Shown: positions 9,738 through 49,160 of the stretch, piece after piece
How positions within the stretch are numbered: position 1 is the first letter of the stretch
How the letters are laid out: the number at the start of each line of letters is the position of its first letter
Assembly: GCF_963921235.1 (NCBI RefSeq)
Contig: NC_086107.1
Location: forward strand, 108,936,001 to 109,000,000
From: Mobula hypostoma
Taxonomy: Eukaryota
Length of the DNA stretch: 64,000 nucleotides
Direction of reading: 5' to 3'
Position numbers and translations under genes: made by a program
The notes under the pieces: generated by a model
Seen by the model: the letters and a program-made list of their open reading frames with translations, nothing else
What the model was told of the DNA's origin: nothing
Database searches by the model: none

Positions 9738-10492
9738 CAAGGTAAATGGTAGGGCACTGAAGAGAGCAGTAGAAAAGAGGGATCTGGGAATACAGATACA
9801 AAATTCCCTAAAAGTGGCATCACAGGTAGATAGGGTCATAAAGAGAGCTTTTGGTACATTGGCCTTTATAAATCAAAGTATTGAGTATAAGAGCTGGAAT
9901 GTTATGGTGAGGTTGTATAAGGCATTGGTGAGGCTGAATTTGGAGTATTGTGTTCAGTTTTGGTCACCAAATTACAGGAAGGATATTAATAAGGTTGAAA
10001 GAGTGCAGAGAAGGTTTACAAGGATGTTGCTGGGACTTGAGAAACTCAGTTACAGAGAAAGGTTGAACAGGTTAGGACTTTATTCCCTGGAGCGTAGAAG
10101 AATGAGGGGAGATTTGATAGAGATATATAAAATTATGATGGGTATAGATAGAGTGAATGCAAGCAGGTTTTTTTCCACTGAGGCTAGGGGAGAAAAAAAA
10201 CAGAGGACATGGGTTAAGGGTGAAGGGGGAAAAGTTTAAAGGGAACATTGTGGGGGAGCTTCTTCACACAGAGAGTGGTGGGAGTGTGGAATGAGCTGCC
10301 AGATGAAGTGGTAAATGTGGGCTCACTTTTAACATTTAAGGAAAACTTGGACAGGTACATGGATGAGAGGTGTATGGAGGGATAGGGTCCTGGTGCAGGT
10401 CAGTGGGACTAGGCAGAAAAATGGTTCAGCACAGCCAAGAAGGGCCAAAAGGCCTGTTTCTGTGCTGTAATGTTCTGTGGTTGTATGGTTAT
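9738..10492 (+). mobile_element. 5'-truncated CR1 LINE
   Basis: ORF 9814-10239 ...LYKALVRLNLEYCVQFWSP...RGDLIEIYKIM; CR1 3'UTR. Confidence 0.92.
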
Positions 10493-18799: not shown

Positions 18800-19325
18800 A
18801 GCAGGTTTGGGTGCCTTATGTTAGAAAGGATGTGCTGAACTGGGGAGGGTTCAAAGGGGGTACACAAAAATGATTCCAGGATTAAACAGCTTCTCACTTG
18901 AAGAGCGTCTGATGGCTCTGGGCCTGTATTCACTAGAATTCAGAAGAATGAGGGATGACCTCATTGAAACCTATTGAATGCTGAAACCTTGATAGAGTGG
19001 ATGTGGAGAGGATGTTTTCTATGATAAAAGAGTCTAAGACCAAAGGACACAGCCTCAGAATAGTGGGGAATCCTTTTAGAAAGGAGGTGAGGAATAAATT
19101 TCTTCATCCAGAGGGTGGTGAATCTGTGGAATTCTTTGCCAGAGGCAGAAGTGGAAGCCAAGTCTTTATTTATACTTAAGGCAGAGGTTGATAGATTCTT
19201 GATTGGCCAGGGGGAGAAGGCAGGAGATGGGACTGGGAGGAAAATTGGACCAGCCATAATGAAATGGCAGAGCAGACCCCATGGGGCAAATGGACAAATT
19301 CTGCTCCTATATCTTAGGGTCTTAT
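18800..19325 (+). mobile_element. CR1 LINE 3' fragment
   Basis: SKTKGHSLRI...VVNLWNSLP motifs and CR1 3'UTR. Confidence 0.85.
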
Positions 19326-20658: not shown

Positions 20659-21376
20659 TGTGCAAAAGAGCAGCAAAATTATCATACTTGACAATAATTC
20701 TTCTTCAATTAATTGAAGTATTCACATTCATGGAGGAATCAAAACTTAAGTCATTTTCAAATCTCCAGACTTTTCATGATGAACAGAATCCAATTAATTC
20801 TGCTATCCGAGTATTGCGTAGGCCCCATCTAATGGCAATAGCAAGCAAAAATGCCCTCAAAAGATAAAGGGATTGCCCCATCGGAAAGCCACCTCTTGCA
20901 GAAGATGGGGGCGGTGCGATGTGAAAGGCCCGGATTTGGTGTTCAAGTCTCTGAGGTGCGACTTGGGCCAGTGATATCTATGTCAGGGAGTGACAGTGAG
21001 TCTAACTGGTTGTAATCATGAAGGCTCAGTCTGACCAGGTCCCTGAATGACTTTATTGCGGCTTTGTCCAACTTATACTCGATTGACGCGGCTGGTTTTA
21101 GATGTTCGATCACTTGACCTCTGTGTGGAAACGTGCTTATGGGCTCAGGGAGAAGAACAGTGTAATCCTGAACAACGTGTGACTACAGGACATTCAGCGA
21201 GGCAGAGCTTATATGAGACAACTGTATCTAGACAACTCAGATATGAAGAATTGTCCAGTCAAGAGGGCAGAACGAAACATAGAAACATAGAAACATAGAA
21301 AATAGGTGCAGGAGTAGGCCATTCGGCCCTTCGAGCCTGCACCGCCATTTATTATGATCATGGCTGATCATCCAAC

Positions 21377-24300
21377 TCAGAACCCCGCCCCAGCCTTCCC
21401 TCCATACCCCCTGACCCCCGTAGCCACAAGGGCCATATCTAACTCCCTCTTAAATATAGCCAATGAACTGGCCTCAACTGTTTCCTGTGGCAGAGAATTC
21501 CACAGATCCACCACTCTCTGTGTGAAGAAGTTTTTCCTAATCTCAGTCCTAAAAGGCTTCCCCTCTATCCTCAAACTGTGGTCCCTCGTTCTGGCCTTCC
21601 CCAACATCGGGAACAGTCTTCCTGCATCTAGCCTGTCCAATCCCTGTAGGATTTTATACGTTTCAATCAGATCCCCCCTCAATCTTCTAAATTCCAACGA
21701 GTACAAGCCCAGTTCATCCAGTCTTTCTTCATATGAAAGTCCTGCCATCCCAGGAATCAATCTGGTAAACCTTCTTTGTACTCCCTCTATGGCAAGGATG
21801 TCTTTCCTCAGATTAGGGGACCAAAACTGCACACAATACTCCAGGTGTGGTCTCACCAAGCCCTTGTACAACTGCAGTAGTACCTTCCTGCTCCTGTACT
21901 CGAATCCTCTCGCTATAAATGCCAGCATACCATTCACCTTTTTCACCGCCTGCTGTACCTGCATGCCCACTTTCAATGACTGGTGTATAATGACACCCAG
22001 GTCTCATTGCACCTCCCCTTTTCCTAATCGGCCACCATTCAGATAATAATCTGTTTTCCTATTTTTGCCACCAAAGTGGATAACTTCACATTTATCCACA
22101 TTAAATTGCATCTGCCATGAATTTGCCCACTCACCCAACCTATCCAAGTCACCCTGCATCCTCTTAGCATCCTCCTCACAGCTAACACTGCCACCCAGCT
22201 TCGTGTCATCCGCAAACTTGGAGATGCTGCATTTAATTCCCTCATCCAAGTCATTAATATATATTGTAAACAACTGGGGTCCCAGCACTGAGCCTTGCGG
22301 TACCCCACTAGTCACCGCCTGCCATTCTGAAAAGGTCCCGTTTATTCCCACTCTTTGCTTCCTGTCTGCTAACCAATTCTCCATCCACATCAATACCTTA
22401 CCCCCAATACCGTGTGCTTTAAGTTTGCACACTAATCTCCTGTGTGGGACCTTGTCAAAAGCCTTTTGAAAATCCAAATATACCACATCCACTGGTTCTC
22501 CCCTATCCACTCTACTAGTTACATCCTCAAAAAATTCTATGAGATTCGTCAGACATGATTTTCCTTTCACAAATCCATGCTGACTTTGTCCGATGATTTC
22601 ACCGCTTTCCAAATGTGCTGTTATCACATCTTTGATAACTGACTCCAGCAGTTTCCCCACCACCGACGTTAGGCTAACCGGTCTATAATTCCCTGGTTTC
22701 TCTCTCCCTCCTTTTTTAAAAAGTGGAGTTACATTAGCCACCCTCCAATCCTCAGGAACTAGTCCAGAATCTAACGAGTTTTGAAAAATTATCACTAATG
22801 CATCCACTATTTCTTGGGCTACTTCCTTAAGCACTCTAGGATGCAGACCATCTGGCCCGGGGGATTTATCTGCCTTCAATCCCTTCAATTTACCTAACAT
22901 CACTTCCCTACTAACATGTATTTTGCTCAGTTCCTCCATCTCACTGGACCCTCTGTCCCCTACTATTTCTGGAAGATTATTTATGTCCTCCTTAGTGAAG
23001 ACAGAACCAAAGTAATTATTCAATTAGTCTGCCATGTCCTTGCTCCCCATAATCAATTCACCTGTTTCTGTCTGCAGGGGACCTATATTTGTCTTTACCA
23101 GGCTTTTCCTTTTTACATATCTATAAAAGCTTTTACAGTCCGTTTTTATGTTCCCCGCCAGTTTTCTCTCATAATCTTTTTTCCCCTTCCTAATTAAGCC
23201 CTTTGTCCTCCTCTGCTGAACTCTGAATTTCTCCCAGTCCTCAGGTGAGCCACTTTCTCTGGCTAATTTGTATGCTTCTTCTTTGGAATTGATACTATCC
23301 CTAATTTCTCTTGTCAGCCACGGGTGCACTACCTTCCTTGATTTATTCTTTTGCCAAACTGGGATGAACAATTGTTGTAGTTCATCCATGCAACTTTTAA
23401 ATGCTTGCCATTGCATATCCACCGTCAATCCTTTAAGTGTCATTTGTCAGTCTATCTTAGCTAATTCACATCTCATACCTTCAAAGTTACCCCTCTTTAA
23501 GTTCAGAACCTTTGTTTCTGAATTAACTATGTCACTCTCCTTCTTAATGAAGAATTCCACCATATTATGGTCACTCTTACCCAAGGGGCCTCTCACGACA
23601 AGATTGCTAATTAACCCTTCCTCATTGCTCAAAACCCAGTCCAGAGTAGCCTGCTCTCTAGTTGGCTCCTCGACATGTTGGTTCAAAAAACCATCCCGCA
23701 TACATTCCAAGAAATCCTTTTCCTCAGCACCTTTACCAATTTGGTTCACCCAATCTACATGTAGATTGAAGTCACCCATTATAACTGCTGTTCCTTTATT
23801 GCACACATTTCTAATTTCCTGTTTAATACCATCTCCGACCTCACTACTACTGTTAGGTGGCCTGTACACAACTCCCACCAGCGTCTTCTCCCCCTTAGTG
23901 TTACGCAGCTCTACCCATATCGATTCCACATCTTCCCGGCTTATGTCCTTCCTTTCTATTGCGTTAATCTCTCCTTTAACCAGCAACGCCACCCCACCTC
24001 CCCTTCCTTCATGTCTATCCCTCCTGAATATTGAATATCCCTGAACGTTGAGCTCCCATCCCTGGTCACCCTGGAGCCATGTCTCTGTGATCCCAACTAT
24101 ATCATAATCATTAATAACAATCTGCACTTTCAATTCATCCACCTTATTACGAATGCTCCTTGCATTGACACACAAAGCCTTCAGGCGCTCTTTTACAACT
24201 CTCTGAGCCCTTATACAATTATGTTGAAAAGTGGCCCTTTTTAATGCTTGCCCTGGATTTGTCGGCCTGCCACTTTTACTTTTCTCCTTTGTACTTTTTG

Positions 24301-24424
24301 CTTCTACCCTCACTTTACACCCCTCTGTCTCTCTGCACTGGTTCCCATCCCTCTGTTGTGAACTAACCTCCTCTCGCCTAGCCTCTTTAATTTGATTCCC
24401 ACCCCCCAACCATTCTAGTTTAAA
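21377..24424 (-). pseudogene. CR1 ORF2: APE endonuclease plus reverse transcriptase, three in-frame stops
   Basis: Four tracked ORFs share one frame: NARS, GITETWL, MGDFN, LGKSDH (APE); KSPGPDG, YLDFQKAFD, GVPQGSVLGP, KFADD (RT). Stops at 23447-23449, 23024-23026 and 22004-22006. Confidence 0.95.
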
Positions 24425-24648
24425 GTCACCTCAGTAGCCCCTGCTAATCTCCCTGCCAGGATATTGGTCCCCCTAGGATTCAAGTGTAACCCGTCCTTTT
24501 TGTACAGGTCACGCCTGCGCCAAAAGAGGTCCCAATGATCCAAAAACTTGAATCCCTGCCCCCTGCTCCAATCCCTCAGCCACGCATTTATCCTCCACCT
24601 CATCGCATTCCTACTCTCACTGTCGCGTGGCACAGGCAGTAATCCCGA
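24415..24648 (-). pseudogene. CR1 ORF1 C-terminus (SGNH esterase-like domain), partial
   Basis: SGLLPVPR...INAWLRDW...DGLHLN (DxxH motif of SGNH hydrolases), ending TLN-stop. Confidence 0.88.
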
Positions 24649-24902
24649 CATATTGTTTGTGTTTATGCGACTAGCAGATGGATCGGGAGAAACACAAGCT
24701 GTGTTAGGTGGGCAGAGGCAGCGAGAGTCCGGACCATGAGAGAGGCAGAGGGAATCTTGTGCGGAGAGGGAGAGGGGCTAATGGAGAGAGGCACAGCTAG
24801 TGTGGGGCAGAGATACGCAGAGAGAAACAGACCATGAGTCAGAGAGAAATAGACAGCTAACATCAGACACAAGAACTGAAGTAGGCACAAGCATATTAAC
24901 AA

Positions 24903-25060: not shown

Positions 25061-25353
25061 CATACACAAACTAACAAAGGAAACTCAATATACATGGGAC
25101 AGGCAGAGAGACTGATTTGCAGATAACAGTACAGATTGAAACACACTTACAGACACACATAGGTGGCAAGGAGACCTGGGATATGTGAGTCGGGGAGAGA
25201 CAGGTAAGTAGAACACAGGTGCGTGGGCTGAAACGTACACACCCACGCACGTATACACACATGCACATACAGACACATCATGATACAGTGGTAACACACA
25301 TCAAAGTTGCTGGTGAATGCAGCAGGCCAGGCAGCATCTCTAGGAAGAGGTAC

Positions 25354-25389
25354 AGTCGACGTTTCAGGCTGAGACCCTTCGTCAGGACT
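25354..25389 (-). ncRNA. Minimal type I hammerhead ribozyme motif
   Basis: AGTC-CTGACGA-AGGGTCTCAGCCT-GAAA-CG-TC-GACT on the minus strand. Confidence 0.75.
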
Positions 25390-25521
25390 AACTGAAGGAA
25401 GAGCTAGTAAGAGATTGTCCAGCTCTTGGCTCCATCCCTCCCCCTCCTGGCTTCTCCGATCATTTTGGATCTCCCCTTCCCCCTCCCACTTTCAAATCTC
25501 TTACTAGCTCTTCCTTCAGTT

Positions 25522-25557
25522 AGTCCTGATGAAGGGTCTCGGCCCGAAACGTCGACT
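25522..25557 (+). ncRNA. Minimal type I hammerhead ribozyme motif
   Basis: AGTC-CTGATGA-A-GGG-TCTCGG-CCC-GAAA-CG-TC-GACT: intact core, stem I AGTC/GACT, stem II GGG/CCC. Confidence 0.8.
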
Positions 25558-25683
25558 GTACCTCTTCCTAGAGATGCTGCCTGGCCTGCTGCGTTCACCA
25601 GCAACTTTGATGTGTGTTGCTTGAATTTCCAGCATCTGCAGAATTCCTGGTGTTTGCGATGATACAGTGGTGTTGCAGTTCAT

Positions 25684-39126: not shown

Positions 39127-39830
39127 ATGAATCACAATAGCTTGGTTTGCAGGTGCAGGAGACTATCGAGAAGACAGATGGAATGTTGGCCTTCATTGCT
39201 AGAGGGATTGAATTTAAGAGCAGGGAGGTTATGCTGCAACTGTACAGGGTACTGGCGAAGCCGCAGCTGGAGTACTGCGTGCAGTTCTGGATCTCCATAC
39301 TTGAGGAATGATATACTGGCTTTGTAGGCAGTGCAGAGGAGGTTCACCAGGTCGATTCCAGAGATGAAGGGGTTAGACTATGAGGAGGGATTGAGTCGCC
39401 TGGGACTGTACTCACTGGAATTCAGAAGAATGAGAGGAGATCTTACCGAAACATATAAAGTTATGGAAGGGATAAATAAGATAGAAGCAGGGAAGTTGTT
39501 TCCACTGATTGGTGAGACTAGAACTAGGGGGCATAGCCTCAAGATTTGGGGGAGTAGATTTAAGACAGAGATGAGGAGGAACTGCTTTTCCTAGAGGGCG
39601 GTGAATCTGGGAAATCCTCTGCCCAATGAAGCAGTGGAGGTTATCTCAGTAAATATATTTAAGTCAAGGTTGGATAGATTTTTGCACGGTAGGGGAATTA
39701 AGGGTTATGGCAAAAAGGCAGGTGGGTGGAGATGAGTCCATAGTCAGATCAGCCATGATCTTATTGAATGGTGGAGCAGGCTCGACGGGCCAGATGGCCG
39801 ATTCCTGCTCCCATTTCTTACGTTTTTATG
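39127..39830 (+). mobile_element. CR1 3' fragment
   Basis: QRRFTR.IP...RGDLTETYK...TRGHSLKI; CR1 3'UTR. Confidence 0.9.
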
Positions 39831-48077: not shown

Positions 48078-49160
48078 TTCAGTTCCTAGGTGTCAGCATC
48101 TCTGAGGATCTAACCTGGACCCAACATATTGATGCAGTCACAAAGAAGACATGATAGCAGCTATATTTCATTAGGGGTTTGAGGAGATTTGGGATGTCCC
48201 CAAAGTCACTCTGCAAATTTCTACAGATGTACCGTGGAGAGCGTTTTAACTGGCTGTATCACCGTCTGGTACGGCAGGGGCAGTGCAGGGGGGTGGCTAC
48301 TTCACAGGATCAAAATAAGCTGCAGAAAGTTGAGAACTCAGTCATTTTCATCCTGGGCACTAGCCTCACCAACATCCAGGACCTCTTCAAGGAGCGATGC
48401 CTCTAAAAGGCAGCATCCATCAGTAAGGAAGCCCACCACTCAAGTCATGCCTTGTTCTCATTGCTACCATCGGGGAGGAGGTACAGGAGCCTGAAGGCAC
48501 ACACTCAATGATTCAGGAACAGCTTCTTCCCCTCTGCCATCAGATTTCTGAATGAACATTGAACCCATGAGCACCACCTCACTGCTTTTTAGCATTACCC
48601 ATTTAACTTAACTATTTTATTTTATATATATAGTTGTGGCTTACTGTAACTCACAGCTTTTATATCATGTATTGCATTGAATTTAGAAGATTGAGGGGGG
48701 ATCTTATTGAAAGGTATAAAATCCTAAAGGGATTGGACAGGCTAGATGCAGGAAGATTGTTCCCAATGTTGAGGAAGTCCAGAACGAGGGGTCACAGTTT
48801 GAGGATAGAGGGGAAGCCTTTTAGGACCGAGATGAGGAGAAACTTCTTCACACAGAGAGTGGTGAATCTGTGGAATTCTCTGCCACAGGAAACAGTTGAG
48901 GCCAGTTCATTGGCTATATTTAAGAGGGAGTTAGATATGGCCCTTGTGACTAAAGGGATCAGGGGGTATGGAGAGAAGGCAGGTACAGGGTTCTGAGCTG
49001 GATGATCAGCCATGATCATACTGAATGGTGGTGCAGGTTCGAAGGGCCGAATGGCCTACTCCTGCACCTATTTTCTATGTTTCTATGTTTCTATTGTACT
49101 GCTGTCACAAAAACAACAAATTTCACGACATATGCCAGTGATATTAAACCTGAAGCCGAT
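48078..49160 (+). mobile_element. Rex1/Babar 3' end split by a CR1
   Basis: FYRCTVESVLTGCITVWYG...; 3'UTR TGTATTGCATTG|TACTGCTG is interrupted at 48680-49092. Confidence 0.8.
48680..49092 (+). mobile_element. Young 5'-truncated CR1, same subfamily as 21275-24648
   Basis: Near-identical to the 3' 400 bp of the long copy; ATTG duplicated at 48676-48679 and 49093-49096. Confidence 0.92.

Follow-up and report, generated by a model that had tools for sequence, protein, structure and literature searches.

A truncated CR1 copy in the window

The window, that is, the whole stretch of 64,000 nucleotides analyzed here, carries on its minus strand, between ~24648 and 21274, a single ray-type, 5′-truncated copy of a CR1-type LINE, which retains 77 codons from the end of an esterase ORF1 and continues through the ORF1–ORF2 junction and an APE-RT ORF2 to an octamer tail (all features of the element given below lie on the minus strand). 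The ORF1 piece (24418..24648) encodes the C-terminal part of an SGNH/GDSL esterase and ends T-L-N; its match to Pfam family PF13472 (E 2.7e-7) was just under the curated cut-off, and the full homolog P0001, a ray ORF1, matched the same family with E 4.7e-16. P0001, which stems from the ray Mobula hypostoma, is also the closest named ORF1 protein (97% identical to the window piece), and all named matches to the piece came from rays, skates, or sharks. Homology to the relatives ended at ~24648, where contig depth collapsed and loose ends appeared, which indicates the 5′ truncation.

Downstream of the junction, a linker of ~80 codons (24178..24417), open in the −1 frame and free of AUG in the window copy, leads from the heptamer to the APE endonuclease, which together with the region following it extends to the first in-frame stop of the copy (23450..24177; PF03372, E 1.6e-12, and PF14529). 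The remaining ORF2, comprising RT and the C-terminal region, continues in the same frame and is broken by stops (21377..23449; PF00078, E 1.9e-34). Pfam placed Exo_endo_phos over 24430-23450 and RVT_1 further on; a protease domain was not found in ORF2 by Pfam. With its 5′ end missing and three in-frame stops in ORF2 (~23449, 23026, and 22006), the window copy is dead, so that the claim of frameshifting made below concerns the CR1 family and not this copy.

The short 3′ UTR (21274..21376) closes with an 8-bp repeat, present four times in tandem at 21274-21305; its unit, which reads TTTCTATG on the element strand, is one base off the octamer unit of amniote CR1. The CR1 octamer has been described as ATTCTRTG (PMC2612034) and, read against it, TTTCTATG is a variant of this unit. 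The ORF2 of the window is 44-45% identical to those of L006 and L016, two loci from the metagenome scan described below, both of which have CR1 octamer tails (ATTCTATG repeats). The window element thus combines an esterase at the C-terminus of ORF1, APE and RT in ORF2, and a tandem octamer of the ATTCTRTG type, and CR1 LINEs with a type IV esterase ORF1 are described with the same esterase ORF1, APE-RT ORF2, and 3′ octamer tail (PMC4120745, PMC13343379). Judged by its domains and octamer tail rather than by RT phylogeny, it is an esterase-ORF1 CR1 LINE.

A second copy of the junction was not present in the 64-kb window. Further 3′-end fragments, 67-94% identical and belonging to this CR1 subfamily or to older ones, were located at 48679-49094, 39178-39830, 1636-1989, 18918-19193, 9852-10133, and other positions, none of which extends to the junction. 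An inverted pair of 124-nt copies (25293-25416 and 25495-25618), 97% complementary and 78 nt apart, is situated ~650 nt 5′ of the truncated element; we take the copies to resemble a SINE or LINE 3′ end of cartilaginous fish.

The ORF1–ORF2 junction

ORF1 ends ACT TTA AAC TAG on the minus strand. Direct reading agreed with the original prediction that the heptamer T_TTA_AAC (U_UUA_AAC in the RNA; 24424-24418) lies there in the ORF1 frame as a slippery site; the ORF1 stop TAG (24417-24415) follows it immediately. That the −1 frame is the frame of ORF2 was likewise borne out: it is closed by a TGA two codons 5′ of the heptamer (24433-24431), reads G-D-F-K-L-E-W-L-G-G-G onward into ORF2, and has its first ATG deep in APE, at 23779 (VIMGDFN), codon 214 after the heptamer. 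Ribosomes scanning on from the ORF1 stop in the window would first meet ATGs that are out of frame (24413 and 24348). The G-rich block said to begin 4 nt after the heptamer had to be moved, as TGGTTGGGGGG begins at 24412, 5 nt after it; the conserved portion of this region is a run of six G (24407-24402) that starts 10 nt past the heptamer and is a candidate frameshift stimulator.

The identification of UUUAAAC as the coronavirus −1 heptamer is correct, U_UUA_AAC being the site in coronavirus ORF1a/1b (PMC5009743). By itself, a slippery heptamer is not unusual: the two strands of the window contain 496 canonical X_XXY_YYZ heptamers, 12 of them TTTAAAC, and TTTAAACTAG with at most one mismatch occurred at chance level (three times, 4.4 expected). 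Since slippery heptamers are common by chance, it is the placement of the heptamer and its conservation, both far in excess of random expectation, that carry the case.

Conservation of the junction across CR1 lineages

Metagenomes were scanned with the motif [CV]CLPGA[RKG][IV]xD, which lies ~140 codons upstream of the junction; the underlying alignment was built from chosen proteins ending in N, and the motif is also present in proteins ending otherwise. Among the 36 loci obtained, 13 had no match to the ORF1 tail, nine ended before the junction, and 14 reached it. All 14 carried the heptamer, as TTTAAAC in 13 and GTTAAAC in one, and in 13 of the 15 junctions (window included) a stop codon followed directly (11 TAG, one TAA, and one TGA). 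The 15 junctions formed 11 clusters at 75% identity, with pairwise identities of 32-81% upstream; the related loci share descent, and many stem from one data set, which counts against the case. ORF2 identity was ~40-45% among the window, L003, and L006/L016, and reached 69% within the octamer-tailed group. Heptamer and −1 phase have thus both been kept across CR1 lineages with ORF2s ~40-45% identical between groups, which is the conservation to be looked for if the original prediction was right. Some loci were called bird- or reptile-type from CR1 motifs that we take to be typical, besides their ATTCTATG tails. For loci with such tails, the label rests on the description of the octamer (PMC2612034).

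The most distant locus, L003 (680-700), has G_TTA_AAC, a doubled stop (TAG TAG), a G run 3 nt closer than in the rest, and an intact ORF2 of 971 codons; heptamer and spacer may vary together, judging from this locus.

Contigs from four public runs were aligned to 24100-24700 at 80% likeness (19002, 17651, 3, and 323 contigs, respectively); runs X19-X22, with a small share or none, were left out. Among the best 40 of 73 rows for the four runs, no variant of at least 8% fell into the heptamer and stop (24415-24424) or the G run (24402-24407), and many fell into their flanks. Scans of viral contigs found no relative, and a scan of genome contigs gave two loci, which were uninformative. One 506-bp contig of a Providencia alcalifaciens assembly matched CR1 ORF1 weakly (L001, 56-313; 34%, E 4e-7), possibly through vertebrate contamination or by chance.

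Constraint on nucleotides rather than residues

The heptamer could have been inherited simply because ORF1p requires a C-terminal Leu-Asn, with the remainder of the junction carried along. To separate codons from residues, an alignment was made of those loci in which ORF1 was open for 70 codons or more (10 of 15). The last Leu was encoded by TTA and the last Asn by AAC in 10 of 10, despite background use in these ORFs of 20/155 for TTA among Leu codons and 18/52 for AAC among Asn codons; at none of 25 other conserved control columns was a single codon kept (mean modal share 0.61), and conservation did not exceed 0.9 at any of 135 third positions. The base preceding TTA was T in 14 of the 15 junctions, though the amino acid that it helps to encode varies. 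On this codon comparison, the heptamer is conserved at the nucleotide level beyond coding need. Dual coding of F-K-L could likewise fix its bases, only with the −1 frame translated through them; upstream of the heptamer this frame contained an ATG in none of the 15 junctions and was closed within 1-5 codons in 11.

Protein ends gave a wider view. When 1.84 billion cluster representatives were searched with a profile, the best 150 matches were taken, and complete ORF1 tails were compared for 86 representatives (50% clusters): 42 ended L-N, eight G-N, five with another residue plus N, and 31 otherwise. The prevalence of L-N before the stop (42/86) is what a requirement for these residues would produce. 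The residue preceding it, on the other hand, was Y, A, S, G, T, H, N, F, C, V, or E, and one whose codons cannot end in T was found in 1 of 42, compared with 14.5% expected nearby (p=0.011). A protein requirement is largely refuted by the fixed codons at L-N, set against 0/25 control columns; nor does it account for the third-position T upstream and the G run downstream, which are kept while the amino acids vary, or for a group ending G-N, and we regard it as very improbable. The 31 tails not ending in N, among the 86 of these more distant representatives, mean either that some esterase ORF1s do without the signal or that these are decayed copies.

The G-N endings belong to a distant esterase-ORF1 group terminating in Q-G-N-stop (P0074, P0075, P0079, P0081, P0084, P0086, P0092, P0130, P0139, and 16 of P0171-P0188). 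Among all proteins fetched, 23 ended G-N, mostly from one clade, preceded by Q (21), K (1), or A (1), all of whose codons can end in G. Going by the protein ends alone, the group is compatible with an alternative slippery site, G_GGA_AAC. Its DNA was not found in viral contigs or plasmids, where G_GGA_AAC was thus not seen, and long fused forms of the group, when looked for, did not turn up (weak evidence).

Phase, linkers, and start codons

APE began in the −1 frame in 11 of the 12 loci long enough to tell; the exception, L032, is decayed and has lost the ORF1 stop as well, and the true APE start of L025 is also in the −1 frame. The linkers between heptamer and APE comprised 32-88 codons, could not be aligned between groups, and were open in the −1 frame. 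The joint chance of this was ~1e-16 for nine loci treated as independent, and is overstated by that treatment. From the heptamer onward, ORFs containing APE and RT extended over 971 (L003), 1004 (L006), and 951 codons (L016). Frame 0 closed within 0-34 codons.

Bicistronic LINE RNAs can also be translated by termination at the ORF1 stop and restart nearby, as in L1 and SART1 (PMC2881922, PMC3708506). At the CR1 junction, this would mean post-ORF1 restart at a nearby AUG or non-AUG codon and a free ORF2p, with heptamer and G run serving termination or restart. In-frame AUGs upstream of the APE core, which according to the original prediction would count against frameshifting, were indeed observed in part, namely, in 8 of the 12 related loci: at codon 3 after the heptamer in L006, L010, L012, and L016, at codon 2 in L030, and further into the linker in three more. 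The CR1 family of the window has such a variant, too, as the linker GTG at 24313 was ATG in 18% (best-matching organism), 96% (a second organism), 0%, and 12% of the summed contig depth of the four runs, where depth is not copy number. However, AUG position was not conserved. The AUG at codon 2 or 3 was absent from the bird/reptile-type relatives L007, L009, L011, and L014, the window, L005, and L025 had no such in-frame AUG, and the nearest ATG after the ORF1 stop was out of frame in 9 of 14. Met makes up 1.4-1.9% of ORF2 codons, so that AUGs in linkers of 32-88 codons are to be expected by chance. Moreover, restart could do without a slippery heptamer whose first base is fixed as T, and without a linker that stays open all the way up to it. 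As the sole route to ORF2, reinitiation is therefore unlikely; with linker AUGs not conserved in position, it may serve as a second route in some bird/reptile-type subfamilies, and the AUGs leave the junction signal unexplained. The original prediction of a retrovirus-style −1 shift unlike L1 reinitiation is supported with regard to the frameshift, by the conserved signal, and less firmly with regard to reinitiation.

The G run and downstream RNA

A run of at least five G followed the heptamer in 13 of 13 loci with enough 3′ sequence (background 1.2% per locus). It started at offset 11, corresponding to a 10-nt spacer, in 11 of the 13, at offset 10 in one, and at offset 8 in L003. The codon before GGG ended in G irrespective of whether it encoded Leu, Lys, Gln, Ser, Arg, or Ala, so that conservation of the G run is at the nucleotide level, too. 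This run of five or more G at a fixed 10-nt spacer, without a conserved RNA fold, is newly observed here.

Folds downstream of the heptamer were no better than those of shuffled sequences in the window (z 0.03 to 0.62), and a shared fold was not found among the 13 loci (z −2.0 to +1.2). Pseudoknots were probed by a duplex search within 400 nt. Of the 13 loci, only the window had a segment able to pair with the G run at p<0.05 (12 bp with the linker ~180 nt downstream, p=0.03), and this pairing was treated as chance. Four weak Rfam matches were likewise attributed to chance. The small hairpin that recurs in some bird-type linkers ~24-50 nt past the heptamer (L009, L012, and L014; clear in L012), which is absent from the ray-type copy, was rejected as a classic stimulator, being too far downstream. 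G4Hunter scores were at least 1.2 in 10 of the 13 loci and 1.08-1.12 in the other three, and a quadruplex at the G run is accordingly predicted as possible in 10 of 13, though not universal. The stable stem-loop or pseudoknot that stands soon after the heptamer at structure-stimulated sites of the coronavirus or retrovirus type was thus not found; a short conserved motif at a fixed spacer of ~10 nt, characteristic of the arterivirus type, was. Accordingly, of the G-rich stimulator originally proposed, the run at a fixed position has held up, and a conserved stem or pseudoknot has not. Lacking a stable or conserved structure, the site may have a low frameshift efficiency; a LINE probably needs little ORF2p.

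The sequence around the stop bears on two further explanations. If TAG served as 3′ splice acceptor, a spliced RNA could join an upstream AUG exon to ORF2 and thereby fix the phase, and TAG is indeed the stop in 11 of 15 junctions. But versions with TAA and TGA exist, direct reading revealed no polypyrimidine tract, and no joint at 24415 occurred among the best 15 of 19 joints or in the one run presumed to be RNA. This is weak evidence, as it comes from contigs alone and a donor site would fall beyond the aligned region. Splicing would also leave the slippery pattern unexplained, and the chance that it accounts for the junction is very small. Ribosomes might, alternatively, be carried into ORF2 by transcriptional slippage, for which a homopolymer of five to six G is available, or by readthrough of the stop. 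The heptamer itself contains no long homopolymer, and the G run lies past the ORF1 stop, so that an indel there cannot bypass it; readthrough would continue in frame 0, which closes within 0-34 codons, and not in the −1 phase of ORF2. The likelihood of either is next to negligible.

Proposed mechanism and relation to known systems

An X_XXY_YYZ heptamer in the upstream frame, a downstream −1 ORF open from that site and devoid of an upstream start, and conservation at the nucleotide level were all found at the junction, which, as far as comparison of sequences can establish, is a real and deeply conserved recoding-type signal. We consider it likely (probability roughly 0.8) that esterase-ORF1 CR1 LINEs make ORF2 by programmed −1 frameshifting, as an ORF1-ORF2 fusion. 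Most ribosomes would end at the ORF1 stop, yielding ORF1p with its coiled coil/zinc finger and esterase. A smaller fraction, with the Leu and Asn tRNAs on UUA AAC, would slip back to UUU AAA and translate the variable linker, APE, and RT, giving a low ratio of a Gag-Pol-like ORF1p-ORF2p fusion. The stimulator would probably be the adjacent stop codon together with the G run fixed 10 nt downstream, and not a pseudoknot; the G run would work either via a protein that binds it or as a weak G-quadruplex. That ribosomes slip, how efficiently they do so, that a fusion is made, and what the G run contributes we infer from these sequences.

Coronavirus and retroviral sites have a pseudoknot or stem spaced 5-9 nt from the heptamer. 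CR1 differs in that no pseudoknot or stem stands at 5-9 nt, the stop codon directly follows the heptamer, and a G run is placed at 10 nt; like coronavirus ORF1a/1b and retroviral gag-pol, it would join a structural ORF to a polymerase ORF in the −1 register (PMC5009743). For pea enation mosaic virus, a stop codon in the vicinity of the shift site has been reported as important (PMC5009743). Similar in layout is the −2/−1 site in nsp2 of PRRSV, an arterivirus, which is stimulated by nsp1beta and poly(C)-binding protein and has unstructured downstream RNA, a C-rich protein-binding motif, and a wild-type spacer of 10 nt with a working range of 9-11 nt (PMC4937337). In CR1, too, the RNA past the slip site is unstructured and contains a short homopolymer-rich motif at a set distance; CR1 differs in being G-rich instead of C-rich and in its slip site. 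This parallel is the basis for a more specific and tentative reading, that a protein bound to the G run 10 nt downstream, and not RNA structure, stimulates the CR1 −1 frameshift to the esterase-ORF1 fusion from rays to amniotes and in more distant relatives. CR1 would then possess a genome-resident, G-rich counterpart of the arterivirus poly(C)-protein mechanism that predates the shark–bird split, which is conceivable on analogy but doubtful.

Among non-LTR elements as a class, −1 frameshifting is not new, as Dictyostelium TRE5-A and TRE3-A require it for ORF2 according to a review legend (PMC5911963). These are APE-type non-LTR elements like CR1, but of another clade and host, and without an esterase ORF1. 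L1, with its unconventional reinitiation, and SART1, with UAAUG coupling, resemble CR1 in having a bicistronic LINE RNA and an ORF2 dependent on ORF1 translation (PMC2881922, PMC3708506). They make free ORF2p from a start codon, whereas the CR1 ORFs overlap on a slippery site and have no conserved start codon. For CR1, a 1997 paper on the chicken element reportedly describes two closely spaced ORFs, and a 1997 paper on the turtle element, as well as Repbase entries, may mention an ORF overlap.

A literature search found no proposal of CR1 frameshifting in the main-text portions covered; annotations of the junction might be present in supplements (PMC3708506, PMC4120745, PMC13343379). PMC13343379, PMC4120745, PMC2612034, PMC11303007, and PMC3905857 give no route to CR1 ORF2 and do not contain the word frameshift, and the portion covered of a 2016 review of frameshifting does not mention CR1 (PMC5009743).

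Implications for CR1 elements

CR1 elements are common in the genomes of rays, sharks, birds, and reptiles. The route by which LINE ORF2 is translated has been stated to be an open question (PMC3708506), and CR1 has been called the dominant retrotransposon group in most vertebrates (PMC13343379). If frameshifting is the route, ORF2 of CR1 has been mis-delimited, and the working enzyme would be a fusion of the Gag-Pol kind, attached to an ORF1p that self-associates and binds lipids. Such attachment would provide a means for the enzyme to be assembled jointly with ORF1p particles. ZfL2-1 ORF1p, also of the esterase type, dimerizes via its coiled coil and binds lipids (PMC3905857), so that the fusion could co-assemble with ORF1p in the manner of Gag-Pol. 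If a protein on the G run is indeed the stimulator, the host, or ORF1p itself, would have a switch over ORF2 output. A G-run or G-quadruplex stimulator was described in 2016 as anticipated but unknown (PMC5009743), and the CR1 junction may be a natural one. Heptamer, stop, 10-nt spacer, and G run together form a short cassette that can be tested.

Two proteins, P0011 and P0022, read through into F-K-L. They were rejected as functional fusions, as they look like single copies with an indel upstream and show −1-frame residues only. P0022, a stingray NCBI model named hydroxyacid oxidase 2 isoform X1, is a CR1 esterase read into APE (PF13472 and PF03372/PF14529) and thus a misannotation.
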